IMG/VR virus record: IMGVR_UViG_3300044620_001904
Location: 1-64,000 of that record
DNA length: 64,000 nucleotides
Strand: one strand, 5' to 3'
Origin: a virus
A program made the position numbers and the translations under genes. The stretch's first letter is position 1. Every line of letters begins with the position of its first letter. This document shows positions 48,318-62,050 of the stretch, one piece after another. Under the pieces are notes generated by a model, which saw only the letters and a program-made list of their open reading frames with translations, had not been told where the DNA came from and did no database searches.

Positions 48318-48602
48318 AAACCTGTAGGTTATTACTCCTCCTGAAACTGCAAGTCCTACACCTACTCCGAAAAATAAATTTCTCGGATAAGTTCTAAAAA
48401 AATTTGGTCTATAATATATGGTTGGATAAGGACCGTAAAAATTATAGTCAAACATGGAAGCTCCTAACATCATAGTTCCAGCCGATATCATAAAAGTTGA
48501 AGACTTTAACTTTTTTTGGTATAAAATGGCCTGAGATTTGCCGATTTGACAAATACTCAGACCAATTATTAATGATATTAAAAATAATTTAAAGTTTTTC
48601 AT
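48309..48602 (-). CDS. Small membrane protein
   Basis: Signal-like N-terminus and two hydrophobic segments. Confidence 0.5.
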   Translation of the reverse strand: MKNFKLFLISLIIGLSICQIGKSQAILYQKKLKSSTFMISAGTMMLGASMFDYNFYGPYPTIYYRPNFFRTYPRNLFFGVGVGLAVSGGVITYRFLR

Positions 48603-49650
48603 ATTTTGGTTTAATTAATTTCCATATTATTTGACTATAATCTTTTCTATCCCACATTGCAAACATTACAGAATGTAATTCTCTTTTATTAATATTAGTT
48701 TGAACGAACTTTGCAAATTCAGATTTGGTTGGTTCAGGATCGACATCATTATATTTTCCATATCTGAAATAATCGTGCATTTTACCACAATATTCAGATA
48801 TTTGAAAATGATGATATTTTAGATTTCCAACATATAATTTTATTTTTTTATAAAATTCGTCAGGAACATCTTTAAGTAAAGATTCTATATCGTCTCCATT
48901 TTTAAGACATTCCCATATTGAGGTGGTCGATATTTGTGTCATTATTTTATGTAATCTCAAATATTCATCACCTTTTATTTTTATTCTATCTCCGTTAGAA
49001 AACTTAACAACAAAACCTTCCTCATTATCTTTTATCATAGATTTAAGTTCTTTGTAGTCCTTGATTCCATCGTATTTTTTGGCCAATTTGAACCCCAAAT
49101 TTTTTATCATATTAGAAAATCTAACGTCATAATTGTCTGAGTATAAATCAACTTCTTGACCGGTTTTGGTGTTTATCATACCAAGTAGAATGACATCTTC
49201 AAAATCATATTGGCACACTATTCTATTTTGTTTGTATATGATTTCAAACAAATAAGTATAATCCTTATGTAAGGACGCGAAATCATATTTAAACATCATT
49301 TCATACCCCTTAACCGCTTGATCAGAAGTAAATGATCCGCGAGTTGCCATAATCCAACCACCGTTATAATAGAAAAAAATACCAAGTGAGCCGTCTAATT
49401 TATCATACACATCAAACTTTTCGGTTGCGGAGTGTTTTTGTTCACTAAGATTAAAAAATTTTTTAAACGGGCGAGCAACAACATTCCCATTGTCATCAGT
49501 TACCAAACCACGGCACATTAGAGTAATATCGTCCCACAGATTTTCATATTGAACCTTTTCATTATAGTTCCATATAGTTAATGGTAAAGTTGGATGTACT
49601 TGTTTATAAAGTAATCCCTCGTTATAATATTTCTCTAAGGTTTCTAACAT
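48589..49650 (-). CDS. RNA ligase, T4 Rnl1-like
   Basis: CRGLV, PFKKFFN, KLDGSL (motif I), ATRGSF, FEII, EGFVV and IKIK motifs. Confidence 0.88.
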   Translation of the reverse strand: MLETLEKYYNEGLLYKQVHPTLPLTIWNYNEKVQYENLWDDITLMCRGLVTDDNGNVVARPFKKFFNLSEQKHSATEKFDVYDKLDGSLGIFFYYNGGWIMATRGSFTSDQAVKGYEMMFKYDFASLHKDYTYLFEIIYKQNRIVCQYDFEDVILLGMINTKTGQEVDLYSDNYDVRFSNMIKNLGFKLAKKYDGIKDYKELKSMIKDNEEGFVVKFSNGDRIKIKGDEYLRLHKIMTQISTTSIWECLKNGDDIESLLKDVPDEFYKKIKLYVGNLKYHHFQISEYCGKMHDYFRYGKYNDVDPEPTKSEFAKFVQTNINKRELHSVMFAMWDRKDYSQIIWKLIKPKYEKL

Positions 49651-49670
49651 TTTGCTAAATTACAAAAAAA

Positions 49671-50285
49671 TTATGACATATACAAAAGGGTGGGATTATC
49701 TTTTTGAACCGCAATTTTTTCACCGTGCATTTTTCTAAATTCTTCTAAATTGAAAGGTCTTGTGATTAGGTGAAAACCATTTTTGGTCGGAATTGTGGTT
49801 ATAGTATCATCTTTACCGGTTTGAAAAATTAAACTTTGGATGTTTGAAATTAAATTATTGTAAAATACATGTCTTTTAACCTCGCTCAAATCAAAATCTT
49901 TATGGTCAATATCAATAATCCATTTTTTATCTTTTTCATTTGAAAATGAACCGCAGACAGATTCGTAAGCCTTTCTAACCGATTTAAAATCCTTATTCAT
50001 AATTTGATCAGTAACCTTTTTTAAGGTATGAAAAGCGATTTTTTCATATGACCTACGATTAAGATTTATACAAGCCCTCGCATTATGGAAATTACAAAGA
50101 TGAATAATTTCATCAATTTTTGAATCCAAATATTCTATTGAATTGATGTAATATGTTTTGACCACATAAGAATTTGATCCAAGCTCAGGATTTTCTTTTT
50201 TGCGTTTCAAAATCTGAAGATGATAAAAATCATCCTCAGATTCAAAAGTTAGTAAATCTTTTATTGCAACTATATTATCTATCAT
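49671..50285 (-). CDS. Hypothetical protein (possible AEP/primpol-like fold)
   Basis: KWIIDID and TKNGFH motifs. Confidence 0.45.
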   Translation of the reverse strand: MIDNIVAIKDLLTFESEDDFYHLQILKRKKENPELGSNSYVVKTYYINSIEYLDSKIDEIIHLCNFHNARACINLNRRSYEKIAFHTLKKVTDQIMNKDFKSVRKAYESVCGSFSNEKDKKWIIDIDHKDFDLSEVKRHVFYNNLISNIQSLIFQTGKDDTITTIPTKNGFHLITRPFNLEEFRKMHGEKIAVQKDNPTLLYMS

Positions 50286-50950
50286 TTTTCTGAAAGTAAA
50301 AATTTGTTTGAGATGACTTTGAATGAAACTGATTTGTCATAAGACCTAATAACGATACCTTCTCTATCAAAATTTTGATTTAATTGTGATTTATCATCTG
50401 CAAAGTTAATTAATTCATCAATAGTTTCAGGTAGTTTGAAATCCTCAGATAATACAGGTACGTAACTAAGACCTAAAAAAGCCATAACATAAATAAAATC
50501 CGCGAATTCGTAATATTTGAAATTATCAATATCAAATATATTAAAAAATTTAACAGTTTGACCGATAACTTTATATGGATTTCCTTGTATACCTTCACCT
50601 ATAAGTTCACCCTGAAATGAAATATTTTTATTCAAACTTTTCATTTTATTTTCTAAATCCAAAATTCTTGCAACTCTCCAAAATGTGTTGGTTTCACTTT
50701 CTAAAAGTTCCAAATTACGAGAACATATACCAAACTCACCATCTTTGACATAAAATGTTGCAGAGGAACCATCAAGTTTTTCTGTAACATAGTAGGTATG
50801 TTTTTTCATTTCTTCATACTCAGAAGATAAGTTCTGACAATTATGAACAAGCACACCATTAGCGTAAAAATTATTTACATTTTCAACCCCAACATCGTAA
50901 CGCTTAGATTTATTTTTTATTTTTTTTATTGTTTTAATCTTATCTAACAT
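50282..50950 (-). CDS. Split intein C-half (37 aa) fused to the C-terminal half of a DRB0094-family RNA ligase
   Basis: YDVGVENVNNFYANGVLVHN|CQN; then TEKLDGSS, CSRN, QGELIG, REGIV and SFKVISNKFLL motifs. Confidence 0.9.
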   Translation of the reverse strand: MLDKIKTIKKIKNKSKRYDVGVENVNNFYANGVLVHNCQNLSSEYEEMKKHTYYVTEKLDGSSATFYVKDGEFGICSRNLELLESETNTFWRVARILDLENKMKSLNKNISFQGELIGEGIQGNPYKVIGQTVKFFNIFDIDNFKYYEFADFIYVMAFLGLSYVPVLSEDFKLPETIDELINFADDKSQLNQNFDREGIVIRSYDKSVSFKVISNKFLLSEK

Positions 50951-51912
50951 AATATTTCTTTTAATGCATTTAACAATTCAAAGTCACTCATATGATTAAT
51001 ATCACTTTCCCAAAGATAATAAACCTTATAGCCTTTTGATTCGATTAATTTAAGTTTTTTTTTATCTTTTTCCCAAACATCCTTAACGGTTAACCCATTT
51101 AGTAAAATATCAGATTCTTTATATAATTTAGGGCTACCATGCCAGAAGTCCCCCTGAACTTCAATTATGATTTTATTTTTAAAAATTAAATCCCAATTAT
51201 AACTATATAAAAAACCATTTGCCGTATAAGTAATATTTAATTCATTTAGAATTGATTGTATCCTTAATTCTTGTTTACTAACATATTTTAAATTACCTCT
51301 GGCCTTTTCAGTTAAAGATCTTAATTCATCTGTTGATAGTTTAGATAATCTATCTTTTTGAGATTTTGATATTTTTTCTTTAACCCAACCTAGTTGAGCT
51401 GGATTAATTATATTATCGCCATATCTTAACTTTAAAGTTTCTTTACTTTTTTTCAATACTTCGGTGTAGTTAATTTTTGAAATTGCATATTTTCTTATTG
51501 TTTCATTATTAAAATTGTTTTCATATCCATAGTTTTTAAAAAATGTGTTTTTCTTTTTTAATTTCACATCTTCGGATTGAGAAGGATTTTTAACACCGTA
51601 GCGATCAATTAAAGTTTTTTCAAATTTGTCTTTATATTGTTTAGTTTTTTTACTTTCGCTAGCAGTTCGTTTAATACCCAATAATAAAATATAATTACCA
51701 ACACTAACACCATATTTTTTTTTGATATCATCAATAGTACTCCCATCCAAATACATATTTTTAATATCGATCAAATTAATAGGTATTTTGGTTTCTAATG
51801 ATTTTAAATATAGAACCTCATTTTCAAGCTTATTATTAGGGTGATGATGATTAATATGTATTTTTAAATGATTTTTTTTTATAAACTCTTTTTTACAAAT
51901 TAGACATTCCAT
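50944..51912 (-). CDS. Free-standing endonuclease (Vsr/DUF559-like PD-(D/E)XK) between the split-intein halves
   Basis: C2H2 N-terminus, RYGVKNPSQ-type repeats, IIEVQGDFWHG...GYKVYYLWE motif. Confidence 0.82.
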   Translation of the reverse strand: MECLICKKEFIKKNHLKIHINHHHPNNKLENEVLYLKSLETKIPINLIDIKNMYLDGSTIDDIKKKYGVSVGNYILLLGIKRTASESKKTKQYKDKFEKTLIDRYGVKNPSQSEDVKLKKKNTFFKNYGYENNFNNETIRKYAISKINYTEVLKKSKETLKLRYGDNIINPAQLGWVKEKISKSQKDRLSKLSTDELRSLTEKARGNLKYVSKQELRIQSILNELNITYTANGFLYSYNWDLIFKNKIIIEVQGDFWHGSPKLYKESDILLNGLTVKDVWEKDKKKLKLIESKGYKVYYLWESDINHMSDFELLNALKEILC

Positions 51913-51961
51913 AACATATTTATTTACATATAAATATCTAACTTTATATAAAAAACAGAAC

Positions 51962-52714
51962 TTAATCCGTTATTTTTACAACTTCATCACCTAAAAGTTC
52001 TTTAACTTCTCTATAACAATTAAGTTCTGGTAACCAAATTCTATGGTTACCTGTTAGTTTAAGAATTTTACCTGAAATTAATTCAATTTCATACCAATCA
52101 TTATTATTTTTTTGTACTGAGTGAGAATTTATGGTGTTCATTTCGTTTTTGTTTTCAAAAACATTAAAACTCAAAACTTTACCAATATATTTAGTTTCAC
52201 AAATTTCTTTGATTGTTTTAATACCATCTTCAGTTATTAATTCGGTTTCTTCAGATAAACATCTCACCTCGTCGGTTTTAGATATAAATGATGGAAACAA
52301 ACCTTTTACCTTACCAGCAAGTTCTGCCGGAATTGGAGGCTCGTATTTATTAATCCCCAACATCATAGTTACATCCATACCAACCTTAAAATCTAAGTTA
52401 GTGTAATTAATTAACGATAAAGGTAAAATCAAACCTTGACTAACCTGTCCGCGAAGTTTTACGGTTCTCAAACGAAAACCTTCAGAACCGTCGGCCATCT
52501 TTTTATATGATGATTTTCGCAAAAATTCGAATTCAGGTTTAATAGGTAAAAATGAGTCAATTTCGCAATAAACTACTTTGTCACCAACTTTGTGACCTAC
52601 ATCTTTTGCAACAACTACTTTCCATCCATCAACGATGGCCAATTCTATTTTATCAGCACCCTCAATTGGGCGCAAATCAGATATAATTCTAATACTTGCT
52701 AATTTTCTTTCCAT
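51962..52714 (-). CDS. N-terminal half of the DRB0094-family RNA ligase fused to the split intein N-half (99 aa)
   Basis: RKLASI...PIEGADKIE...YCEIDSFLP...LRGQVSQGL...KTDEVR|CLSEET...LTGNHRIW. Confidence 0.9.
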   Translation of the reverse strand: MERKLASIRIISDLRPIEGADKIELAIVDGWKVVVAKDVGHKVGDKVVYCEIDSFLPIKPEFEFLRKSSYKKMADGSEGFRLRTVKLRGQVSQGLILPLSLINYTNLDFKVGMDVTMMLGINKYEPPIPAELAGKVKGLFPSFISKTDEVRCLSEETELITEDGIKTIKEICETKYIGKVLSFNVFENKNEMNTINSHSVQKNNNDWYEIELISGKILKLTGNHRIWLPELNCYREVKELLGDEVVKITD

Positions 52715-52719
52715 TTTTT

Positions 52720-53094
52720 TTAAATTTTTTCAGTAAATAAACCATCTTTTATTGCCAAATCAAACATCTCTAAGATATCTTTATAAAATAGTTCATATTT
52801 CAAAATTTCAAGCTCACCTTCTTTTTCAATATCAATGTCATCAAACCATTCGGGTTTTAAGTCATATAGATTAATATTATCTTTTACCGCATGTTTTAAA
52901 ACAGGATAAAACTCATTCAACAACCATTTAGTATTATCCCAAATAAATTCATATGAAAAACCACCATTAGAGTTCTTACGATTGACGCAATTAAAAGAAC
53001 GATTATAAAAATTACCATCATTATCAACCAATGCCGATAATTCAAATTGAATATATTCAATTTGTTCTGAGCAATATTTAACTACTTTAAACAT
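52720..53094 (-). CDS. Hypothetical protein
   Basis: Operonic ORF. Confidence 0.5.
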   Translation of the reverse strand: MFKVVKYCSEQIEYIQFELSALVDNDGNFYNRSFNCVNRKNSNGGFSYEFIWDNTKWLLNEFYPVLKHAVKDNINLYDLKPEWFDDIDIEKEGELEILKYELFYKDILEMFDLAIKDGLFTEKI

Positions 53095-53313
53095 TTTATA
53101 AAAAATCGATTTTCATCCCACAAACTAAATATTTGTCGGTTTTTCGGTGGGGTTATATAAAATTAATTGATAATTTCTAATTATCAAAATCATCTGAACG
53201 GAATTTTCCTTTTTTGTCCTGATTTTTTTTGTTTGACTTGTTTTTGTTGTGATTACCGTTTGAACTCTTAGATTTCGGCATATCACCTTTCTGATTACGA
53301 TACGTTTTACCCA

Positions 53314-53559
53314 TTAGTATTTTGTAACTGAATAATTTCCACAAACAATTTGTTCATTATCAAATATATCATTAAAGAAAATACAACCACTTTCTTGTTT
53401 GATAATGTTTTTTGCCTGATAACACCTTCCTATTTCGTTTGAAGTTATTTCATAATAAGTCTTGTTTGAACTTATATTTGTATTAAAAATAAAATTCATC
53501 GCAAATATTAGAACAATTGAAACTATAACAAATATTGAGTTTTTTTTCAAACCGAGCAT
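53314..53559 (-). CDS. Small membrane-anchored hypothetical protein
   Basis: N-terminal transmembrane helix. Confidence 0.5.
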   Translation of the reverse strand: MLGLKKNSIFVIVSIVLIFAMNFIFNTNISSNKTYYEITSNEIGRCYQAKNIIKQESGCIFFNDIFDNEQIVCGNYSVTKY

Positions 53560-53573
53560 TTTTTTACAAAAAT

Positions 53574-53795
53574 CTAAAACTTTACCAAAAAGTCAATATG
53601 TGCAAAACCTTTATTTGTATGAACTGTAATTTCATTTTCATCAATTCTAGGCTCAAAACTCAAAATTGTTGCAAAACCAGCTTCTTTATCTTCATGTCTT
53701 ACAACTTCTCCTACGGTAAAAATATTACCATATGAATTTATAGCTGTGTTATTATCAACAGATATGAAATTTTGTCTTTTTGATATATTTTCCAT
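53574..53795 (-). CDS. Hypothetical protein
   Basis: Operonic ORF. Confidence 0.45.
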   Translation of the reverse strand: MENISKRQNFISVDNNTAINSYGNIFTVGEVVRHEDKEAGFATILSFEPRIDENEITVHTNKGFAHIDFLVKF

Positions 53796-53796
53796 G

Positions 53797-54465
53797 TTAA
53801 CCAACAACATTTTTTAATTCATCAGTATGGTGATCAAACTCCATATCTGAAATGATATTACGTTTAATCATAATCGGAATAATCTCTTCAATTAAATTAT
53901 AAGGTCTAAATTCTGTGGAACCATCAATACCAACATCCATTTTGCGACCTTTACCAAATTTTTTGTGGTTTGGTAAATGAACATGCCCGTGAAGATGGAT
54001 CACACCTTTATTTAAACCATTCCAAGATGAGAGGGGGTAGTGCATTAAAACAAATTTTTTACCACCAACAGATAATTCAACATAATCATTTACGCTTTTA
54101 AATAATCCTTTACACCCACCTCTATTTCTTTCAATGTTATGATCGTGATTACCTAAAATCAAATGTATGTTTTTACAAACAATTCTATCCCAAAAATTAC
54201 GAATGTTCTCAAAACCTCCAAAAGACCAATCACCAAGATGAAATAAAATATCATCTTGATTAACAAATTCATTAATATTATTGACAATAGATGCATTCAT
54301 ACTATCTATGGATTCAAAATCTCTAGTCTGATCAATAGGAATTGATCCATCGTTTAACCTCCAATCTGTAACTCCACGACAAATATTTTTGTGCCCATAA
54401 TGAGTATCTGAGGTGATCCAAATATTTTGAGATGAACTTGATAGTTCTATTTTAATACTACTCAT
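53797..54465 (-). CDS. Calcineurin-like metallophosphoesterase
   Basis: SDTH, LGD, GNHD, HYP and HGHVH motifs. Confidence 0.9.
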   Translation of the reverse strand: MSSIKIELSSSSQNIWITSDTHYGHKNICRGVTDWRLNDGSIPIDQTRDFESIDSMNASIVNNINEFVNQDDILFHLGDWSFGGFENIRNFWDRIVCKNIHLILGNHDHNIERNRGGCKGLFKSVNDYVELSVGGKKFVLMHYPLSSWNGLNKGVIHLHGHVHLPNHKKFGKGRKMDVGIDGSTEFRPYNLIEEIIPIMIKRNIISDMEFDHHTDELKNVVG

Positions 54466-54503
54466 AGATTACAAAGGTATAAAAAAATTTTAAAAAAACA
54501 AAA

Positions 54504-54911
54504 TCAAAATTGAAATTGTTCAAATGCTTTTAAGTATGATGAAATATTTTCAGCCCCTACCGGATTCATTGAATGGACGACAAATTTTGGTAATTTTAAA
54601 CTATTATCTAAGCAATAATCAACCAACCATTTGGCACAATCTAAACCTGTTTTTTCTTTAAAAGATTTTGACATGTCATCATAATTTGTCAAATACAATG
54701 ATTGATCATAATGTTCGTCAGCAAGATCGTGATCAAATGAAATTAAATAAGGTAATCCATTTGTTGATATGTAGTTAACAAATTCATCGTAGTTTTTAAC
54801 CACAATCCATTCTTCTCGGGTATACATTGCAGAATCCTCGGTTCTTAACCTCATATATGAAACGCAATGATCAGGATTTCTGAAATCGTCTAAAAATAAG
54901 TAAGTTTTCAT
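54504..54911 (-). CDS. Cyclic-phosphate-processing receiver domain protein
   Basis: LFLDDFR, ISFDHDL, TGLDCAKWL and HSMNPVG motifs. Confidence 0.8.
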   Translation of the reverse strand: MKTYLFLDDFRNPDHCVSYMRLRTEDSAMYTREEWIVVKNYDEFVNYISTNGLPYLISFDHDLADEHYDQSLYLTNYDDMSKSFKEKTGLDCAKWLVDYCLDNSLKLPKFVVHSMNPVGAENISSYLKAFEQFQF

Positions 54912-54937
54912 ATTACAAAGATAGTAAAAAAATGATG

Positions 54938-55022
54938 CGGAGAACAGAGGAATCGAACCTCACACAAAATTTGTGCGTCATTCTTAGCAGGAAGGCCCCA
55001 TCGCCATCAGGGATTATTCTCC
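54938..55022 (-). tRNA. tRNA-Ser(GCU)
   Basis: GGAGAAU/GUUCUCC-G acceptor, loop CU-GCU-AA, long variable arm. Confidence 0.85.
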
Positions 55023-55028
55023 GTATTG

Positions 55029-55101
55029 TTGTTTAGGAGGGAATCGAACCCCCACCTTAGCGTCCGTTGCGCTAAATTCTAATCCATTAAACTACTAAAC
55101 A
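55029..55101 (-). tRNA. tRNA-Arg(ACG) with A33
   Basis: UAGCG-CA-ACG-GA-CGCUA. Confidence 0.75.
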
Positions 55102-55391
55102 ATAAATCCAACAATTTGGTTTTTTTCACTTTTATATTGTGTTAAAAGCATAAGTTCGGTAACTTCATCTTTAGTGCAGTATCCTTGAACATCTTCTTGC
55201 CAACTTGTCCAAACTTCAAAAGTGGTTTCACCATCACCATAAAGACCAGTTCCTCCTCCAACGACAGATATTGCATGGCCATTTGGAAATTCCATAACCG
55301 CATGAATGGCTCCCACATTAAAATAGTTACGATGCGGTTTGAAAACCAAATCATCAAATGTTTTTACTTTATATTTTTCAAAAAAATCCAT
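55095..55391 (-). CDS. Hypothetical protein within the tRNA array
   Basis: 98-aa ORF with FPNGHAISVV...YGDGETTFEV. Confidence 0.6.
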   Translation of the reverse strand: MDFFEKYKVKTFDDLVFKPHRNYFNVGAIHAVMEFPNGHAISVVGGGTGLYGDGETTFEVWTSWQEDVQGYCTKDEVTELMLLTQYKSEKNQIVGFIV

Positions 55392-55424
55392 AATATATTT
55401 TTTTAAATTGTTGGTATAATTTTG

Positions 55425-55507
55425 TGAGTAAGGTAGGATTCGAACCTACACGAATTTCTCCACCGGCTTCTAAGGACGGCGCGTTCTACCAGTTTCGCCA
55501 CTTACTC
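55425..55507 (-). tRNA. tRNA-Leu(UAG)
   Basis: Leu-type D arm; loop CU-UAG-AA. Confidence 0.85.
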
Positions 55508-55514
55508 AATTTTT

Positions 55515-55590
55515 GGGTGTTGTATGGGATTTGAGCCCATGACCTTCTGAACCACAATCAGACGTTCTCACCAACTGAACTAACAACACC
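55515..55590 (-). tRNA. tRNA-His(GUG)
   Basis: UCUGA-UU-GUG-GU-UCAGA; G-1 present. Confidence 0.85.
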
Positions 55591-55595
55591 ATATT

Positions 55596-55683
55596 TGGCG
55601 GAAAAGAGAGGTGTCGATCCCCACACCACGAAGGTGCCACTAGTTTTCAAGACTAGGTTTAGCGCCGGCTAAATTTCTCTTCC
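55596..55683 (-). tRNA. tRNA-Ser(UGA)
   Basis: CUAGU-CU-UGA-AA-ACUAG; long variable arm; GCCA end encoded. Confidence 0.85.
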
Positions 55684-55691
55684 ATTTGTTG

Positions 55692-55764
55692 TGGAACAGA
55701 AAAGAATCGAACTTTTATTGCTCGCTCTTCATGCGAGTGCCTTGACCAACTAGGCTACTGTTCC
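55692..55764 (-). tRNA. tRNA-Phe(GAA)
   Basis: CUCGC-AU-GAA-GA-GCGAG. Confidence 0.8.
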
Positions 55765-55797
55765 ATATATTTTACAAATATACAAAAAATATTTCGT

Positions 55798-55869
55798 ACC
55801 GCCAACAAGAATCGAACTTGTAATTAAACCTTATGAGAGTTCCGTGATAAACCGTTTCACTATGGCGGC
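55798..55869 (-). tRNA. tRNA-Met(CAU)
   Basis: Loop CU-CAU-AA; full cloverleaf. Confidence 0.8.
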
Positions 55870-55875
55870 ATTTAG

Positions 55876-55947
55876 AGCACCATGAGAATTTTGAAATCTC
55901 GACTTCTAGTTTGGAAGACTAGCGCTCTGCCTCTGAGCTAATGATGC
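55876..55947 (-). tRNA. tRNA-Gly(UCC)
   Basis: CUAGU-CU-UCC-AA-ACUAG; U73. Confidence 0.85.
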
Positions 55948-55954
55948 TTTTATG

Positions 55955-56038
55955 TTACCGGGGTAGGGTTCGAACCTACACAGGGATTTCTCCCAACAGA
56001 TCCAAAATCTGCTCGCTTGCCAATTTGCATACCCGGCA
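55955..56038 (-). tRNA. tRNA-Gln(UUG) with long variable arm
   Basis: GCAGA-UU-UUG-GA-UCUGU; variable arm GGGA-GAAA-UCCC; U1-A72. Confidence 0.75.
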
Positions 56039-56181
56039 ATTTTGATGAGTCACGGACTTGTGTACCGTATGTCCCCCTTTAAATTATTCACTAACCCAGG
56101 GTGTGGGGAAACTCATCATAATAACCCCCTTGATCGGATTAACGGACCGACTGCCATATCGGAAGTGGGGGTTAGACTCCG

Positions 56182-56268
56182 TAGTCCTGGTCGGATTCGA
56201 ACCGACACGGGCTTCTCAGCCCAACAGATTTTAAGTCTGTCGCGTCCTACCAATTTCGCCACAGGACC
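56182..56268 (-). tRNA. tRNA-Leu(UAA)
   Basis: ACAGA-CU-UAA-AA-UCUGU; long variable arm. Confidence 0.9.
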
Positions 56269-56273
56269 ATATA

Positions 56274-56461
56274 AAACACCCTAATTTATCCAACTTACAG
56301 GTGTTGCGGTTGTCCTCATTTCTGAGTTAGGAATAGTCATTTGTCCTTACGAGGTCGAGTTGACTTGCTCTGAAGTTATCCCCCTCCACTCCAATGTAGG
56401 TTCCCATACGGCGATCAAACCGTTTTTCATCGTATTGGGCGTACTATCCGTTGTCGTGTTT
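56274..56461 (-). ncRNA. Unknown ~188-nt structured RNA
   Basis: GC-elevated, closed by AAACAC/GUGUUU, internal hairpins. Confidence 0.45.
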
Positions 56462-56470
56462 CGGAACGTG

Positions 56471-56576
56471 TAGTCAGGACAGGATTCGAACCTGTATGGG
56501 TTTTTGAGACATCACTTCCTCTCGGTGTTCCACCCAGTTTATTTCAACTTGCGTCTACCAATTCCGCCACCTGACT
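56471..56576 (-). ncRNA. tRNA-like element A (AGUCAGG acceptor, no canonical anticodon arm)
   Basis: AGUCAGG-UGGCGGAAUUGGUAGACGC-[variable]-UACAGGUUCGAAUCCUGU-CCUGACU-A. Confidence 0.7.
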
Positions 56577-56581
56577 ATTCG

Positions 56582-56725
56582 TTATTTCATTTTTTGTACT
56601 TCTTCAATTAACTCAATAAACATTGATTTTGTTATATGTTCCTGCTTTACCCACATATAAATTACCCCCATTCTTTCGTGGTAATCTTTTTTAACTTGTA
56701 ATTTTTCAATCAAATCTTTTATCAT
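56582..56725 (-). CDS. 47-aa hypothetical protein between tRNA-like elements A and B
   Basis: Probable start MIKDLIEKLQ; the longer ORF call runs into element B. Confidence 0.45.
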   Translation of the reverse strand: MIKDLIEKLQVKKDYHERMGVIYMWVKQEHITKSMFIELIEEVQKMK

Positions 56726-56744
56726 AACCTCGTATTTTATTTTG

Positions 56745-56858
56745 TAGTCAGGACAGGATTCGAACCTGTAATGATATGCCCCGCACATATCTGGATGGTC
56801 TAGAATTAGTTGTATAATTCGGAATTCACCACAATGTTACCAATTACACCACCTGACT
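56745..56858 (-). ncRNA. tRNA-like element B
   Basis: Acceptor and T arm identical to A; unrelated middle region with two hairpins. Confidence 0.7.
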
Positions 56859-56860
56859 AT

Positions 56861-56940
56861 TTGAGGATGAGAAGTCCTCTGTGTTGTAAGTTTTAGAACC
56901 AAAGGAACCGCACTCATCCATCCTTTCTCAAGGGAACAAC
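56861..56940 (-). ncRNA. Small RNA with loop-loop (kissing) pseudoknot
   Basis: UCC[CUUGAGAAA]GGA and GAGGA[CUUCUCA]UCCUC have complementary loops UGAGAA/UUCUCA; GUUGU/ACAAC stem. Confidence 0.5.
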
Positions 56941-56947
56941 AAATTAG

Positions 56948-57021
56948 TAGTCAGGATTGGACTCGAACCTGTTTTTCCTCCTTCCCTTTGTCGGAAGTTG
57001 TGCTCCTTACACCACCTGACT
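56948..57021 (-). ncRNA. tRNA-like element C
   Basis: Same AGUCAGG/CCUGACU-A acceptor; CUUCC-GACAAAG-GGAAG arm; imperfect T stem. Confidence 0.6.
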
Positions 57022-57023
57022 AT

Positions 57024-57234
57024 TCACCCCACCTTGAGATTTGAGGTGAGTAGTTATTTCGGTTTTCTATTTCTTAAAAACCTGCGGGGCGTCCCCCATT
57101 AAAACAGCCAACACTACTGGGAGAGATTGTGTCAGTCCCTTTATCCCACGATGTCCCACTCTAGCCGTAGACATTCTGCTAGTCCATTGTTAAATGAGTC
57201 TTGGACAAAAGACTGCTGAGTATCTCTTACTCAT
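57024..57234 (-). ncRNA. Unknown ~210-nt structured RNA
   Basis: UGAGUA-AGAGA-UACUCA hairpin; AGUCUU-UUGUCC-AAGACU with GUCCA/UGGAC pseudoknot potential; further stems. Confidence 0.45.
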
Positions 57235-57236
57235 TG

Positions 57237-57324
57237 TGGGTAGGGAGGGACTCGAACCCCCGATGTTGTGTCTAAAGACCTTTGATTTACAGTCAAAGCC
57301 GTTCGCCGCTACGGTAACCTACCC
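57237..57324 (-). tRNA. tRNA-Tyr(GUA)
   Basis: UUUGA-CU-GUA-AA-UCAAA; long variable arm. Confidence 0.88.
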
Positions 57325-57332
57325 GACGATAA

Positions 57333-57429
57333 AATAGGAAAATAGAAGATGGGCGCGTGGACATCTATTTTTATGATTAGCATTACTATAAACACCTCCA
57401 CCAAAATGGTATTCCCTAATCAACCTATT
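57333..57429 (-). ncRNA. Unknown ~97-nt stem-closed RNA
   Basis: AAUAGG/CCUAUU closing stem, UGAUUAG/CUAAUCA, AGAUG/CAUCU, GUGGA/UCCAC loop complementarity. Confidence 0.4.
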
Positions 57430-57430
57430 G

Positions 57431-57504
57431 TACCCCCTCTAAGAATCGAACTTAGGACATATTGCTTGTAAAACAATCACTCTTAACCACTGAGTTAAGG
57501 GGGT
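57431..57504 (-). tRNA. tRNA-Val(UAC)
   Basis: AUUGU-UU-UAC-AA-GCAAU. Confidence 0.85.
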
Positions 57505-57510
57505 GTATTG

Positions 57511-57583
57511 CGTACCTCCAAGGATTCGAACCCTGAACAAACGGGTTGGAACCGTTTATGATAAACCATTTCACCAGAGATAC
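57511..57583 (-). tRNA. tRNA-Trp(CCA)
   Basis: AACGG-UU-CCA-AC-CCGUU. Confidence 0.85.
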
Positions 57584-57589
57584 GTATTG

Positions 57590-57662
57590 AGAGCAGTGAG
57601 GGATTCAAACCCCCGTGTTTCTCCTTTGCAGGGAGTTGCCTAATCGCTCGAGCCAACTGCTC
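57590..57662 (-). tRNA. tRNA-Cys(GCA)
   Basis: Loop CU-GCA-AA; U73. Confidence 0.85.
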
Positions 57663-57667
57663 TTATG

Positions 57668-57742
57668 TCTTCAGGGGCGGGCTCGAACCGCCGACCTCTT
57701 GGATATCAGCCAAGGATTCTAAACCAACTGAACTACCTGAAG
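57668..57742 (-). tRNA. tRNA-Ile(GAU)
   Basis: CUUGG-CU-GAU-AU-CCAAG. Confidence 0.88.
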
Positions 57743-57748
57743 ATTATG

Positions 57749-57822
57749 TAGTGAGGATGGGACTTGAACCCATGACTGCATGTGTATAAGACATGTATTC
57801 TAACCAACTGAATTACCTCACT
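57749..57822 (-). tRNA. tRNA-Ile(UAU)
   Basis: CAUGU-CU-UAU-AC-ACAUG. Confidence 0.82.
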
Positions 57823-57831
57823 ATAATTAAG

Positions 57832-57905
57832 TGATTCCGGTGGGATTCAAACCCACGTTTACCATTTTAAAAGAATGGTGCCTACAATCACTCGGCCACG
57901 AAATC
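57832..57905 (-). tRNA. tRNA-Lys(UUU)
   Basis: CCAUU-CU-UUU-AA-AAUGG. Confidence 0.82.
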
Positions 57906-58003
57906 ATTTTTTATACCAACAATGTCAAAGAACCTTGTTCTAATCTTTCACAAAGGTAAATCAAATTTTTTAATCCAACAAATCTATGTGAAAGATTTTT
58001 TTG

Positions 58004-58085
58004 AGGAAAGGGTGGGAATCGAACCCACGTTGAGAATTAACTCGCAGATTAACAGTCTGCTGCCTGGCCTCTAGGCTACCAATCC
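58004..58085 (-). tRNA. tRNA-Asn(GUU), atypical body
   Basis: GCAGA-CU-GUU-AA-UCUGC; long variable arm; two U-U mismatches in the acceptor; U73. Confidence 0.7.
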
Positions 58086-58101
58086 ATTTTATATTGTATT
58101 A

Positions 58102-58650
58102 CTAAGTGTTTTTTTTCAAAAAATTGTCCCTAAACATATCAACAATTCCAATAATTTCATTTTTGAATTTTGAATGTATATATAGATGATGTGTTGGACA
58201 CAAAGGAATCAAATTTTCCGGTGAGTTATTTTTTTTATTACAATCATAATGGTGGATTGCCACTATTTTAGATTCACCACATACCACGCATCGTTTTTGG
58301 TGATGTTCAAAACCTATTCTACGGTATCCATTTCTTTCTCTATTTTCAACAGAACCGACCCAATTAGGGTTATTAGGACCACTTCTGAAAAAACTATTTG
58401 AGCAAGAATAAGAACAAGTTGTTTTTTCATGTTTATGATTTGTAATAGTAACGAACACATTACCACAAATTGGACATTTTTTTTCCAAGTAATCGTATTT
58501 AGTTTTTTTCTTTTTCAAATGTGAAATATCTACACTATGAAGTTCTATAAACTCAAAAAATTTTTTTCTAGTTTTACCATTATCATAACCATAAATTGAT
58601 TTTATTGCGTCAGTAATAGTTTGAGAATTTTTTATTATTTCTGTTTCCAT
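58102..58650 (-). CDS. HNH homing endonuclease inserted in the tRNA operon
   Basis: CPICG...CSYSC; CVVCG...HHYD.NKKNN.PENLIPLCPTHH. Confidence 0.85.
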   Translation of the reverse strand: METEIIKNSQTITDAIKSIYGYDNGKTRKKFFEFIELHSVDISHLKKKKTKYDYLEKKCPICGNVFVTITNHKHEKTTCSYSCSNSFFRSGPNNPNWVGSVENRERNGYRRIGFEHHQKRCVVCGESKIVAIHHYDCNKKNNSPENLIPLCPTHHLYIHSKFKNEIIGIVDMFRDNFLKKNT

Positions 58651-58712
58651 ACATATAAATATGTTAGAAATCGTAAAAAACTAATTTGGTCAAACTTTTT
58701 CAATACGACAAG

Positions 58713-58785
58713 TAGAGTAGACAGGACTCGAACCTGCACGCACTTGCTCCCAAAGCAAGGGACCTTCCAATTGGTCAACTACTCT
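58713..58785 (-). tRNA. tRNA-Pro(UGG)
   Basis: CUUGC-UU-UGG-GA-GCAAG. Confidence 0.87.
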
Positions 58786-58841
58786 ATATGAAAAACATAA
58801 TTTTGTAATTACAACACTTAATAACCAATATTTCAAAGAAC

Positions 58842-58879
58842 AAAAAAAAACCCCGAACTTTTTACGGTTCAGGGTTTTT
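58842..58879 (-). terminator. Attenuator terminator of tRNA operon 1
   Basis: AAAAACCCUGAAC-CGUAAAAA-GUUCGGGG-U9; the CUGAACC in its 5' arm is complementary to GGUUCAG in the leader ORF. Confidence 0.85.
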
Positions 58880-58899
58880 ATATGATAATTTTAACTATA

Positions 58900-59004
58900 T
58901 CAACTTTTAACTACTGAACCAATGAATGTACGAAACATCCCAGGATACCAACAATTACCTTGTGGTTTCGAACTAATGACGTTATGTAAATTTATTGTTT
59001 TCAT
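58900..59004 (-). CDS. Leader peptide 1 (34 aa) of the tRNA operon attenuator
   Basis: MKTINLHNVISSKPQGNCWYPGMFRTFIGSVVKS*; promoter TACTTTTG at 59025-59032. Confidence 0.8.
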   Translation of the reverse strand: MKTINLHNVISSKPQGNCWYPGMFRTFIGSVVKS

Positions 59005-59419
59005 AGTTTGTTATATAAGTATTACAAAAGTAGTAAAAATATCAATACAAGTCAAATATTTTTTTCACCACCTAAAATAAATTGTTGCTATTCCTATCGC
59101 AAATGTTAAGACTCTACGTTTTTCAGGATGATAAGGAGTTTTTTGATATGAAATACCAATATCAAACCACCATTCGCCATCAAAATTGTTCCAAACAAAT
59201 TCTGTTTTCATGTCTTATCGTTTAATTTTAAAACATTAAAGTTCTAACCAAGTATCCAATTAATTCATTAAGTAATGCAAAAAAACCAACTATGGATCCA
59301 ATTCCAAATACCGACATCAATATAAATTGTGTCATAATTGCAAAAGTTGATGGTTCCCTTTTGAATTGGTTTTTCTTGTAAAATTTTGAAAAAAAAGATG
59401 TTTGCATATGGTTTTATTT

Positions 59420-59632
59420 TTAGATTTCGCTCAAATATGATTTCAGGTTAGCAAGTTCAATTTTTAATCTTACGATTTCATCGTTTTGCAATTTTATATC
59501 TTCCAGTCTTTCCTTTAAAACCTCAAAAGAATAATCGATAATTTGTTGTTCAATTTCGGTCAAATCTTCTTTTTTTACAAGAATTTTCTCCAAAATAAAC
59601 TCACAATATTTGTCTTTTTGAGATTTAAACAT
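59420..59632 (-). CDS. Hypothetical protein
   Basis: ORF after a TATCTTTG promoter. Confidence 0.5.
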   Translation of the reverse strand: MFKSQKDKYCEFILEKILVKKEDLTEIEQQIIDYSFEVLKERLEDIKLQNDEIVRLKIELANLKSYLSEI

Positions 59633-59685
59633 TTTGTTTTTTGTTGGGCAAAGATATAACTTTTATCTATCTCTGCCAAATTTTT

Positions 59686-59919
59686 TTAAAAAATCGTGTG
59701 ATCCCCAAAGTTATCGTCCCAAGGACAAGGGATGGACTTTCTATCATCATCACGAGTTGGTTGGATGATATCAGAAATTTCAGATAATATCTGTAAAGCA
59801 TCCGTTTGAGCATTATCAGATTGGAAGATAGTTTCAGCATAAGGATATTTTTTGAAATAATCATCAAGAACATTGATAACTTCAGATTTTTTTTCGGGTG
59901 TCCAATTTATTTTATACAT
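59686..59919 (-). CDS. Hypothetical protein
   Basis: ORF downstream of tRNA-Thr. Confidence 0.5.
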   Translation of the reverse strand: MYKINWTPEKKSEVINVLDDYFKKYPYAETIFQSDNAQTDALQILSEISDIIQPTRDDDRKSIPCPWDDNFGDHTIF

Positions 59920-59933
59920 ATTCTATTTTTGTG

Positions 59934-60019
59934 AGCCAAGGGCCGGATTCGAACCGGCGTGTGAGTAAACTCATCCTCATTACAAGTGAGGTGCAATCGA
60001 CCATCTATGCGACCTAGGC
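59934..60019 (-). tRNA. tRNA-Thr(UGU) with long variable arm
   Basis: CCUCA-CU-UGU-AA-UGAGG; variable arm UGAG-UUUA-CUCA. Confidence 0.82.
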
Positions 60020-60026
60020 AAATTGT

Positions 60027-60102
60027 TGGTGACCCTGGCACGATTCGAACGTGCGACTGATTGCTTAGAAGGCAATTACTCTATCCTCTGAGTTACAGGG
60101 CC
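60027..60102 (-). tRNA. tRNA-Arg(UCU)
   Basis: AUUGC-CU-UCU-AA-GCAAU; ACCA end encoded. Confidence 0.92.
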
Positions 60103-60108
60103 TTATAA

Positions 60109-60285
60109 TTATATTTTCTTCACTTCATATCTATGACCACTGTCAGAATTTATCTCCATTAATTTTCTTGTGTTTTCTGCGTCTTCAAAAGTTTCAAACT
60201 CTAATACTTCCTCATGAGTGTCCAATATAATTACCGGCATCTCTACATTTCTGTCATTTTTTACAAATTTTACAATTACATACAT
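60109..60285 (-). CDS. 58-aa hypothetical protein (not in the ORF track)
   Basis: MYVIVKFVKNDRNVEMPVIILD...SDSGHRYEVKKI*. Confidence 0.55.
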   Translation of the reverse strand: MYVIVKFVKNDRNVEMPVIILDTHEEVLEFETFEDAENTRKLMEINSDSGHRYEVKKI

Positions 60286-60302
60286 AATAATTAGTTTTTT
60301 TT

Positions 60303-60377
60303 TGGCGGTCTATAAGGGAATCGAACCCTTACCATATCATAGACAGTGATATATCCTTGCCGTTAGACGAATAGACC
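60303..60377 (-). tRNA. tRNA-Asp(GUC)
   Basis: UAUCA-CU-GUC-UA-UGAUA (U37); GCCA end encoded. Confidence 0.88.
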
Positions 60378-60437
60378 AATTTTGTTTTACAAAGGTAGTA
60401 TAAACTTTTCAATTATACAACACATTTATTTTTTTTG

Positions 60438-60513
60438 TGGAGAAGATGGGAATCGAACCCACCACAAAAACATTGCAAGTGTTTCTCGCCAAAGCCTTGG
60501 TACATGCTCCCCC
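60438..60513 (-). tRNA. tRNA-Ala(UGC)
   Basis: AAACA-CU-UGC-AA-UGUUU; G3:U70. Confidence 0.85.
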
Positions 60514-60524
60514 AAATTATTTTG

Positions 60525-60610
60525 TAGTGCCGATGGGATTCGAACCCACGATTATCCTTTCGGATTCCAGATTGAAAGTCTGGTAGCCTAAACCACTAGC
60601 CGACGGCACC
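60525..60610 (-). tRNA. tRNA-Glu(UUC) with long variable arm
   Basis: CCAGA-CU-UUC-AA-UCUGG; variable arm AUCC-GAAA-GGAU. Confidence 0.82.
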
Positions 60611-60654
60611 ATTTATGATACAAAATTACAAAATATATTTCAAAGAACCAAAAA

Positions 60655-60683
60655 TAAAAAACCCACCTTTTTGGGGTGGGTTT
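60655..60683 (-). terminator. Attenuator terminator of tRNA operon 2
   Basis: AAACCCACC-CCAAAAA-GGUGGGUUUUUU; its CACCCC is complementary to GGGGUG in the leader ORF. Confidence 0.85.
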
Positions 60684-60706
60684 CAATATTTTAGAAAACT
60701 ACAATA

Positions 60707-60784
60707 TTATACCACACCCCGTAGAGTAAGTTCTGCTTCCGTTCTATCGGCAGTGGTGATATATATGTAGTTCAAATTTTTCAT
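60707..60784 (-). CDS. Leader peptide 2 (25 aa) of the tRNA operon attenuator
   Basis: MKNLNYIYITTADRTEAELTLRGVV*; promoter TATCTTTG at 60789-60796, 4 nt before the ATG. Confidence 0.82.
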   Translation of the reverse strand: MKNLNYIYITTADRTEAELTLRGVV

Positions 60785-60830
60785 AACACAAAGATACAAA
60801 GAATTTTTATAAAATCAATACCCTTATCCT

Positions 60831-61352
60831 TTATTTTCTTAATTTAGGTTTAGATTTCATTTTATCATATATCCTAACGAAATAATAAGGATCTTCCATC
60901 ACATAACAAAATTCATTCCTTGTTGTCGCGTTAAGGATTTTAACTTCTTTGATCGGATATTTTGACAATAAATCCATATCTTTGTCGTTATATCTAAACC
61001 ACATATCAATTCTACATGAAATACCAGGTCTAATATTCCACAAAGCAACGGAATCATTTTCTAAATAGAATGTAACACGACTTATTCTACTGCAAAAATG
61101 ATCGTCTTTGTAGGTTAACCTAAATTCGTGTAAATATTGATATTTTTTATCCATATCAACATTTGTTATTACCGGTTGGATTTCAAATAACGAATCCGAA
61201 TGGATATACGGCTTTGGTTGAAGAGGATCGGTCTCGGATCTTTCTTCGTACTTAGCGATGTGCTCACAGTGAGGACATGGTTTGTCTGTTTCAAATGGTG
61301 TGAAAGCCATAAACACCAATAAACAGATTGCGATAATTATAGAAGTTTTCAT
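60831..61352 (-). CDS. Secreted hypothetical protein
   Basis: Signal peptide; CPHCEH motif. Confidence 0.55.
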   Translation of the reverse strand: MKTSIIIAICLLVFMAFTPFETDKPCPHCEHIAKYEERSETDPLQPKPYIHSDSLFEIQPVITNVDMDKKYQYLHEFRLTYKDDHFCSRISRVTFYLENDSVALWNIRPGISCRIDMWFRYNDKDMDLLSKYPIKEVKILNATTRNEFCYVMEDPYYFVRIYDKMKSKPKLRK

Positions 61353-61549
61353 ATCTATAAATATTTGATTATTTTTAATATTTACATTTTTAAAAAAATA
61401 TTTATTCTTCTAAATTTTTAATTTCTTTACATTAAAATTACATTAATTTAAAACTAAAAAAAAGTTATTTGATATTTATTATAGTGACTTTAATTTTTTT
61501 TTATTGAAAATTTTATTATATTTGTATCTAATTTGTAATGATTATTAAC

Positions 61550-62050
61550 ATGGAAAGAGTTTTAGTTTTAAATTCTGATTATAGTCCTTTGAACGTAACG
61601 ACTGTCATTCGTGGTTTTAACTTAGTTAATAAAGGAAAGGCCGAGATATTAAAATCGGGCGAAAAACCGATAAGTGCTGGTTCATTATCATTTGCTCGCC
61701 CTTTGATAATAAGACTATTGGTTTATGTTAAATACAGGGTTAAAAACTTAAAAGTTAATAGGGCTAGAATTTATAAACGTGATGGTCATAAATGTGTATA
61801 TTGTGGGGCGAATAAAAATCTTACAATAGACCACGTTTTACCAAAATCTCGTGGTGGAACAAATAGATGGACTAATTTGGTTACATGCTGCGGTACTTGT
61901 AATAGAAAAAAAGGTGATAGAACTCCATATGAAGCAAATATGACTTTAAGTGTAAAACCTTATGAACCATCATTGTTTTCTGATGTATTTCATAATCACA
62001 TAAGTGATCTGTGGGATGAATTCAAACAAACGATGGGGTTGAATTATTGA
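61550..62050 (+). CDS. HNH endonuclease (McrA-like)
   Basis: VLVLNSDYSPL; RDGHKCVYCG...TIDHVLPKSRGG...WTNLVTCC..CN..K. Confidence 0.9.
   Translation: MERVLVLNSDYSPLNVTTVIRGFNLVNKGKAEILKSGEKPISAGSLSFARPLIIRLLVYVKYRVKNLKVNRARIYKRDGHKCVYCGANKNLTIDHVLPKSRGGTNRWTNLVTCCGTCNRKKGDRTPYEANMTLSVKPYEPSLFSDVFHNHISDLWDEFKQTMGLNY

Follow-up and report, generated by a model that had tools for sequence, protein, structure and literature searches.

L1, a short module ahead of phage tRNA genes, is, with a probability that we would put at roughly three in four, a ribosome-dependent (leader-peptide) transcription attenuator, and all of the evidence for that is computational. In it a Bacteroidota-type promoter is followed in turn by a 34-codon ORF, an intrinsic terminator, a boxA-like motif and tRNA genes. 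Shortage of these tRNAs at the ribosome is probably what prompts the phage to make them, a view for which there are no expression data. Directly observable are the parts themselves, with their geometry, conservation and covariation, and the correspondence of leader codons to downstream tRNAs.

Parts and setting of the L1 module

The window, by which is meant the whole stretch of DNA that was analysed, comprises the opening 64 kb of a virus record of 95 kb in IMG/VR, judged by CheckV to be 32% complete. The phage, with a GC content of ~30%, is T4-like, having a gp20 portal split by an intein, gp23 and a T4-type TerL. Gene promoters in the window are of the Bacteroidota type, TTTG-N19-21-TAnnTTTG, Shine-Dalgarno sequences are lacking, and, as judged by a neighbouring phosphoesterase, the closest cultured relatives are Flavobacterium and Cellulophaga phages. 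Lake-water metagenomes are the main source of DNA reads containing the sequence. ARAGORN finds 24 tRNA genes on the minus strand, from 60610 to 54937, to which Rfam adds three further tRNA-clan matches including Ser-UGA at 55600-55683. Directly downstream of the tRNA genes lie RNA-ligase and phosphoesterase genes (48589-54465).

A preliminary description had given the ORF as 34 codons and a TGA on the minus strand, and exactly that is what is there, from 59004 to 58900. The parts that matter, including those of a sister module, L2, are as follows.

59053..59056, minus strand: -33 element TTTG of the leader promoter, 20 nt upstream of the -7 box and matching the TTTG-N19-21-TAnnTTTG promoters of the window and of relatives
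59025..59032, minus strand: -7 box TACTTTTG, of the Bacteroidota type TAnnTTTG
58900..59004, minus strand: leader ORF L1, 34 codons and TGA
58924..58983, minus strand: inferred sensing window, codons 8-27 including NCWYPGMF, placed by the family-wide position profile
58914..58921, minus strand: antiterminator 5' strand (U)GGUUCAG, in codons 28-31, 12-20 nt ahead of the stop
58846..58879, minus strand: intrinsic terminator hairpin (5' arm 58879-58867, loop 58866-58859, 3' arm 58858-58846; -14.9 kcal/mol)
58842..58850, minus strand: terminator U-tract, nine U, directly adjoining boxA
58830..58841, minus strand: boxA-like element GTTCTTTGAAAT
58712..58785, minus strand: tRNA-Pro(UGG), first gene behind the attenuator
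58650-58102, minus strand: HNH-like ORF
58085-58003, minus strand: tRNA-Asn
57923..57982, minus strand: internal leaderless unit just ahead of tRNA-Lys, made up of TTTG (57982-57979), N20, TACCTTTG (57958-57951), 17 nt and boxA GTTCTTTGACA (57933-57923)
within 54937..57905, minus strand: remaining tRNAs sampled by L1, first part: Lys, Ile (two), Cys, Trp, Val, Tyr, Leu-like elements and Leu-UAA
within 54937..57905, minus strand: remaining tRNAs sampled by L1, the rest: Gln, Gly, Met, Phe, Ser-UGA, His, Leu-UAG, Arg-ACG and Ser-GCU
60638..60796, minus strand: sister module L2 (-7 box 60796-60789, 25-codon ORF 60784-60707, terminator 60684-60658, boxA 60648-60638)

The L1 promoter, TTTG-N20-TACTTTTG, ends 20 nt ahead of the ATG at 59004, and the transcript is expected to start at about 59020-59017. 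As no terminator separates the upstream ORFs (59065-59919) from that promoter, the leader may also receive polymerases that started further upstream. The 48-nt spacer ahead of tRNA-Pro(UGG) is without a TAnnTTTG box. Among 15 aligned L1-like leaders, which share the C-W-Y core of L1, the ATG and the fourth base are invariant.

Could the element be a known RNA in disguise? No match to the curated families of Rfam 15 reaches the gathering threshold at L1, and the best scores over 58841-58911, those of ohsC (36.2 bits, threshold 50), Thr_leader (25.9, threshold 55) and NsiR1 (22.1, threshold 39), come from matches that span essentially the terminator alone. A TTCGAAA-like stretch in codons 12-13 suggested a degenerate tRNA, but there is no tRNA or Rfam match over the ORF and the notion was dropped. 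A blastn search of 58600-59400 against cultured phages gave zero matches, the 173-aa gene adjoining L2 led to no relatives, and the module is absent from the cultured relatives that are nearest by phosphoesterase, Flavobacterium phage immuto and Cellulophaga phage phi17:2. The contigs of the two closest relatives of all by that gene, L003 (97% identity) and L004 (76%), stop short of the leaders. No RNA sequencing runs containing the sequence of 58000-61000 were found. DNA contigs from four lake or 'fungus' metagenomes provide strain variants only, with the stems kept and the peptide altered, and their assembly breaks at 58835-58845; neither the variants nor the breaks have any bearing on expression.

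Correspondence between leader codons and downstream tRNA genes

The preliminary description drew attention to the 17 different residues in the first 25 codons of L1 and considered them unexpected. The count is right, and the surprise is only moderate, being shared by 2 of 271 small ATG ORFs of the genome and by 1.9% of random peptides drawn from phage codon usage; over the 34 codons 17 or more residue types are met in 10-20% of controls. Being so common there, residue diversity is weak evidence and was rejected as a test statistic; the strong statistic is how fully the tRNA set is covered. All 16 of the 16 amino-acid types of the downstream tRNAs are represented in the 34 codons of L1 (P = 2e-4 under phage codon usage, 2.7e-3 under a mononucleotide model), which among 131 comparable small ORFs of the genome is true of L1 alone. 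It had been proposed that the idea would fall if random intergenic ORFs of the genome often equalled L1 in diversity and overlap: over 34 codons 10-20% of controls have such diversity, and of the 131 small ORFs none but L1 has 16-type coverage.

Within the inferred sensing window, 19 of the 20 codons specify amino acids served by downstream tRNAs. L1 is without codons for Ala, Asp and Glu, whose tRNAs sit in the other, upstream, block, and Thr (ACA, at codons 3 and 26) is, as had been noted, the sole L1 residue with its tRNA in that block, accounting for two codons. The individual codon-to-tRNA matches put forward at the outset are also borne out, with Ile-TAT, Ile-GAT, Ser-GCT, Leu-TAA, Pro-TGG, Gln-TTG and Arg-ACG all being called downstream by ARAGORN, while Ser-TGA, which that program does not call in the window, is the Rfam tRNA-clan match at 55600-55683, where the anticodon loop is CTTGAAA and where ARAGORN does call Ser-TGA in the 97%-identical relative. 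Leu-TAG (UAG) reads no L1 codon, again in agreement, and neither does a weak Leu-CAA-like element at 56947-57021. Six L1 codons (GTC, GTT, GGT three times and CCT) require four-way U34 wobble by phage tRNA.

L2 heads the other tRNA block, that of Glu, Ala, Asp, Arg-UCU and Thr. Its -7 box ends 4 nt ahead of its ATG, and after its terminator comes the same GTTCTTTGAAAT motif. Its codons 10-18, TTADRTEAE, are nine consecutive codons taken solely from its five tRNAs, with Arg as AGA to suit Arg-UCU; such a run has P ~5e-5 and zero occurrences in the phage's real genes. This run, together with the contrast between the L1 and L2 windows (Fisher p = 2.5e-5), indicates that the two leaders divide the tRNA set between them.

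Is this a peculiarity of one genome? IMG/VR phage contigs were scanned for a U-tract followed by a boxA-like motif, and the counts of modules so obtained are lower bounds. Where a same-strand tRNA lies within 600 nt, 101 of the 102 matches listed have the order short ATG ORF, terminator hairpin, motif, the ORF being required to start with ATG, to have at least 12 codons and to end no more than 90 nt from the hairpin; the single failure lacks a terminator hairpin. There are at least 97 modules with leaders of 14-60 codons, on at least 95 phage contigs, and 80 distinct peptides among the matches listed. Clustering of leaders left 54 non-redundant modules, for which the ORFs were picked blind to tRNA content and the tRNA sets were taken from ARAGORN alone. 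Stop codon and terminator stem are 25 nt apart (IQR 22-28), and median leader length is 31 codons. In 28 of the 54 the 70 nt upstream of the leader ATG include a strict TAnnTTTG, and in 36 of the 54 a relaxed -7 form, compared with 24% of shuffled sequences. Searching bacterial genomes for the U-tract and motif yielded no module: of 120 matches listed only two are near a tRNA, both without a leader, and so far as those matches go the class seems absent from bacterial genomes and is apparently phage-specific.

Over the 54 modules, recall by a leader of its own downstream tRNA set is 0.963, compared with 0.715 when the sets are permuted (z = 10; 0 of 5000 permutations), and precision is 0.554 compared with 0.366 (z = 14; again 0 of 5000). 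The match of codons to tRNAs is 0.69 in the frame of the ORF and 0.31-0.36 in the other five, which implies that the leader is translated. It also depends on position, peaking at ~0.8 at codons 10-18, close to where the preliminary description had its 'sensing window', and being at background at codons 1-7 and over the last seven; codons 1-7 have a conserved MK(T/N) start irrespective of the tRNA set. Individual cases can be striking to the eye: a leader with LVLLLNNLLL (L260) is ahead of seven tRNA-Leu genes, one with QQQPQQHPQ (L183) is ahead of Pro, Pro, His and Gln, one with YYYEE (L206) is ahead of Glu and Tyr genes, and one with LPETYHNDQPEDN (L177) is ahead of Thr, Tyr, Glu, His, Asp, Asn, Gln, Pro and Leu. 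The C-W-Y and G-M-F-R of L1 had hinted at colinearity of codon order with tRNA gene order, a hunch given up since across modules it is unsupported (mean tau 0.05, p = 0.15).

A ribosome senses only charged tRNA, and this leaves room for the same switch to be answering to amino-acid supply, i.e., to charging level rather than tRNA amount, and so to be reporting general amino-acid starvation. Sequence data cannot tell low charging from low tRNA abundance, and the match at the level of amino acids is very strong. Nevertheless we regard this as unlikely, as the genes regulated are those for tRNAs, extra copies of which give no relief from amino-acid starvation, and as two features of the leaders follow properties of tRNAs and not of amino acids. 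Where there is a sole downstream isoacceptor family, the codon family in the sensing window tracks it for Arg (AGR versus CGN, p = 0.005) and Leu (p = 0.03), no tracking being detected for Ser (p = 0.23), with a pooled p of 0.0014; and codon share follows the share of tRNA gene copies (Spearman 0.43, p = 2e-19). Shortage of particular tRNAs remains the signal that we favour.

Terminator, antiterminator and the boxA-like motif

The complementary heptamers pointed out at the start are where they were said to be, GGTTCAG at 58920-58914 and CTGAACC at 58872-58866, the latter inside the 5' arm of the terminator at 58879-58846; with the additional U of the first strand taken into account, the partner is bases 58872-58865 of the terminator 5' arm and loop. 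The arrangement is found in every module: the terminator 3' arm is copied, often in a form weakened by G-U pairs, in the final codons of the ORF, and the 3' end of a leader pairs with the 5' arm of its own terminator at a mean of -14.7 kcal/mol, compared with -9.6 for the arms of other modules (z = -15.7). The L2 antiterminator has -19.8 kcal/mol. The pairing strand occupies the stretch from 24 to 8 nt ahead of the stop codon, which is why no match to the tRNA set is seen in the last codons. Among the 15 L1-like sequences 92% of the alignment cells of the antiterminator are paired, compared with 11-52% when the partner is slid, and four of its eight pairs show compensatory changes, e.g., one position that is A-U in six sequences and G-C in six; for the terminator 98% of cells are paired. 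Thus the leader-attenuator idea has computational support on independent sequences from match to the own tRNA set, from frame, from position and from the specificity of the antiterminator.

What would a ribosome on the leader do to the folding? In a comparison of masked ribosome positions, as the preliminary description had suggested, nascent L1 RNA not yet including the 3' arm forms the antiterminator with a 30-nt footprint placed at codons 12-24 and does not form it with the footprint on the stop. With full-length RNA the terminator (-14.9 kcal/mol) beats the antiterminator (-11.5) in every minimum-energy fold, and a full-length thermodynamic competition between the two helices was rejected as a model. 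The greater strength of the terminator means that regulation must be kinetic, with the antiterminator competing only co-transcriptionally. No conserved anti-antiterminator or pause hairpin (1:2) was found, RNAalifold on the 15 relatives giving only a 4-bp helix in the coding part; L1 by itself folds into a long imperfect hairpin, which is not conserved. In the absence of a conserved anti-antiterminator, an untranslated leader would read through by default.

That last point lends something to the view that the leader measures translation capacity in general and is not codon-specific, tRNA synthesis being off when there is translation and on when there is none, and retention of an MK(T/N) start whatever the tRNA set can be added in its favour. 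That view is nonetheless very unlikely to be right, since such a gauge would need no mirroring of downstream tRNAs by central codons, nor any splitting of the tRNA set between two leaders of one genome.

The boxA-like motif in a T-run context is present just twice in the window, with 0 expected by chance. In related phages GTT(C/A)TTTGA(A/C)A stands ahead of tRNA arrays, of a tmRNA-like gene and of other RNAs, with a small hairpin sometimes in front of it, and the 16S leaders of the four Bacteroidota genomes examined contain GTTCTTTGAG, GTTATTTGAAA, GTTCTTTGGG or GTTCnTAGACATATTG. We read it as an rRNA-type boxA, from whose sequence NusB/NusE binding and a processive effect are inferred. In phages related by the phosphoesterase gene (53797-54465) tRNA arrays mostly start with a promoter, ~20 nt, GTTATTTGAAATATTGG and the first tRNA, without ORF or terminator. 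From these leaderless units it follows that the motif is a constant start to stable-RNA units, and the ORF-terminator cassette an extra that may be inserted ahead of it, downstream of the promoter. From boxA to the first tRNA the median distance is ~21-29 nt, too short in most modules for a separate promoter, and as boxA also adjoins the U-tract it can in most modules be transcribed only from the promoter of the leader.

The preliminary description had L1 as the gate of an 'operon 1', and this has to be narrowed. The unit at 57982-57923, just ahead of tRNA-Lys, shares the architecture of the leaderless promoter-boxA units in the relatives L012, L025, L056 and L032, and, to go by that likeness, could drive tRNA-Lys and everything downstream without L1. 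Should it be active, only tRNA-Pro, the HNH ORF and tRNA-Asn have L1 as their sole gate, and for the other tRNAs L1 merely adds to transcription. Internal boxA copies are found in 9 of the 54 modules, and as the leaders there still cover the tRNAs behind them (recall 0.91), read-through seems to matter.

The same unit speaks for L1 being a small gene or small RNA independent of the tRNAs, with a promoter and a terminator of its own; the tRNAs would then be expressed from other promoters, and the likeness to the tRNA set would have no regulatory meaning. The terminator is, in addition, strong, and a -7-like box stands between boxA and the first tRNA in 8 of the 54 modules, including L2. Little credence can be given to this, as it leaves unexplained the in-frame-only tracking of their own tRNA sets by 54 unrelated modules, the complementarity, with covariation, of the ORF 3' end to its own terminator, and the fixed distance from stop to terminator. 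Besides, a boxA must be transcribed to act, yet it adjoins the U-tract with no promoter between.

Proposed operation and relation to known systems

Leader translation, stalling, read-through, Nus recruitment and tRNA supply as the signal are inferences, and the sequence of events that follows is offered as such. Transcription would start from the TTTG-N20-TACTTTTG promoter, and the 34-codon leader would be translated by a ribosome while RNA polymerase covers the next ~100 nt. If codons ~8-27 are decoded fast, the ribosome would come to the last codons and the stop and mask (U)GGUUCAG, so permitting the terminator to form and transcription to end at the U-tract. If a tRNA is scarce, the ribosome would stall in the sensing window and leave (U)GGUUCAG free to pair with CUGAACC(G) of the terminator 5' arm as it emerges, and polymerase would read on. 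It would pass boxA, which would probably recruit the host rRNA-type Nus complex for processive transcription, and would enter tRNA-Pro, tRNA-Asn and the rest of the array. Positioning boxA behind the attenuator would, we infer, have the consequence that only polymerases past the checkpoint become processive. With one to three codons for each amino acid served, the sensing window would act as an OR-gate over many tRNA species, and sufficiency of phage tRNA would restore termination, closing a negative feedback loop.

Whether there is more to it than a homeostat is a matter for speculation. L1 and L2 may together provide two-channel surveillance of the host tRNA pool and be an inducible counter-defence switch, a reading that is possible and that we hold only tentatively. 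On it any limiting isoacceptor, due to a host anticodon nuclease or to phage-induced tRNA loss, would fire the OR-gate and call forth replacement tRNAs, and products of the RNA-ligase and phosphoesterase genes would mend the cut ones.

Many large phages carry tRNA genes, and to our knowledge the control of their expression is for the most part not understood. Leader-peptide attenuation, a textbook mechanism, has so far as we are aware been linked with amino-acid operons and with a small number of synthetase genes. In the present case the product sensed would be the decoding capacity that the operon itself supplies. If confirmed, the module would be a direct, self-limiting feedback on tRNA supply, and may have built into it a trigger for the replacement of tRNAs that host defences have destroyed. 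In each leader there would be a natural and compact reporter of codon-specific translation speed, and the codons of its sensing window would predict which tRNAs a given phage depends on. With at least 97 examples and none among the bacterial matches listed, the module is a testable and apparently phage-specific regulatory class.

Enterobacterial leader attenuators can be multivalent, as with thr (Thr/Ile) and ilvGMEDA (Ile/Val/Leu), or respond to a single amino acid, as with his, trp, leu and pheA. L1 shares with them a short ORF directly behind the promoter, a cluster of regulatory codons whose distance from the stop is fixed, an intrinsic terminator and, as its alternative, an antiterminator with a 5' strand that a ribosome at the end of the ORF would mask, and, with the multivalent ones, the sensing of several amino acids together. 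It differs in regulating tRNAs rather than biosynthetic enzymes, in sampling as many as 16 amino-acid types, for the most part with one or two codons apiece, where those leaders have a run of one to three types, in having no conserved 1:2 helix that could be found, and in the boxA-like element behind the terminator. L1 is, moreover, phage-borne, with Bacteroidota-type signals and no Shine-Dalgarno sequence, and its score with the Rfam Thr_leader model is 25.9 bits against a threshold of 55. In the pheM leader of the pheST operon an attenuator does control a component of the decoding machinery through decoding of its own codons, but there the component is an aminoacyl-tRNA synthetase, one amino acid is sensed and the setting is cellular.

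T-box riboswitches bind one uncharged tRNA directly, by way of a specifier codon and the T-box sequence and without a ribosome. Common to them and L1 are translation-related genes and a choice between terminator and antiterminator governed by tRNA status. Rfam has no T-box match in 54000-62000, and the signal of the L1 type, unlike that of a T-box, is frame-specific, implying translation. The boxA of rRNA operon leaders mediates NusB/NusE-dependent processive antitermination; a GTTCTTTGA-type motif heading an untranslated stable-RNA unit is common to those leaders and L1, where, in contrast, it stands after a regulated terminator, Nus-factor binding being inferred from sequence alone.

The nearest published concept is the trn array of Anabaena sp. 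PCC 7120, with accessory tRNA genes that are off until translation is impaired and with RNA-repair genes co-regulated (PMC8421152). Control of that array is at the promoter, by direct repeats and the repressor TrcR (PMC8421152, PMC10272220), with no mention in either paper of attenuation, a terminator or a leader peptide. What it has in common with the L1 module, if our proposal for the latter is right, is a tRNA array switched on under translational stress. A full-text literature search found no description of leader-peptide control of tRNA genes, and Rfam has no family for the L1 element. What would be new here is classical ribosome-mediated attenuation applied to tRNA genes, by means of a leader with many inputs.

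Promoter-like units inside and behind the modules

Two promoter-like units lie beyond the leaders themselves:

57923-57982, minus strand: leaderless promoter plus boxA unit, within the tRNA array and immediately ahead of tRNA-Lys
60610-60637, minus strand: TAATTTTG, resembling the Bacteroidota-type -7 box (TAnnTTTG), between the boxA of L2, the sister module, and tRNA-Glu

The first divides 'operon 1' into an attenuated head (tRNA-Pro, an HNH ORF and tRNA-Asn) and a possibly constitutive body, and internal boxA copies of a similar kind are present elsewhere in 9 of the 54 non-redundant phage modules among the matches listed. TAATTTTG, which starts 12 nt past the TTTG of L2's boxA, may be a second promoter; the arrangement TTTG-N12-TAnnTTTG is common to L2 and another phage contig, L082, and, again among the matches listed, the spacer from boxA to first tRNA carries a -7 box in 8/54 modules.

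The boxA-like motif is not confined to tRNA arrays. In related phages it also heads a tmRNA-like gene (in contig L044) and two unidentified structured RNAs, at which a small boxB-like hairpin precedes it. The other boxA-headed RNA loci are:

L044: 14780-14900 (tmRNA-like)
L005: 5000-5450
L007: 15200-15600
L030: 11900-12400

Possible turnover of leaders and arrays

The leaders of L044 (8700-9350) and L259, a further phage contig, are near-identical. Downstream of that of L259 are eight tRNA types, matched by the leader, and downstream of that of L044 are Gly and Leu tRNAs only, so that L044 looks like an array that has lost genes while retaining its leader. The terminator/boxA junction (window 58835-58845) is the exact point of break or divergence of contigs from four metagenomes, with co-occurring strains having the same terminator and then different sequence, which fits cassette sharing or recombination between arrays.

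Unusual tRNA-like elements and other genes of the window

56471-57021, minus strand: three tRNA-like elements with identical 5′ and 3′ ends and divergent middles
58102-58650, minus strand: HNH-type endonuclease ORF within the tRNA array, flanked by tRNA-Pro and tRNA-Asn
61538-62050, plus strand: HNH-type endonuclease ORF, the second of two in the window
26124-29039, minus strand: T4-type portal gene, split by an intein bearing a LAGLIDADG domain
37650-39689, plus strand: full-length phage-encoded ClpB-like double AAA+ protein
48589-54465, minus strand: T4 Rnl1-type RNA ligase, DUF7487/Vsr-like ORF and calcineurin-like phosphoesterase, immediately downstream of the tRNA array

Two of the three elements (106 and 114 nt) have Rfam tRNA matches of 38-41 bits; the third, Leu-CAA according to ARAGORN, scores no more than 27 bits there. 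Insertions or introns within tRNAs are a possible explanation for these elements. The gene neighbourhood at 48589-54465, with its ligase of T4 Rnl1 type, is RNA-repair-like.
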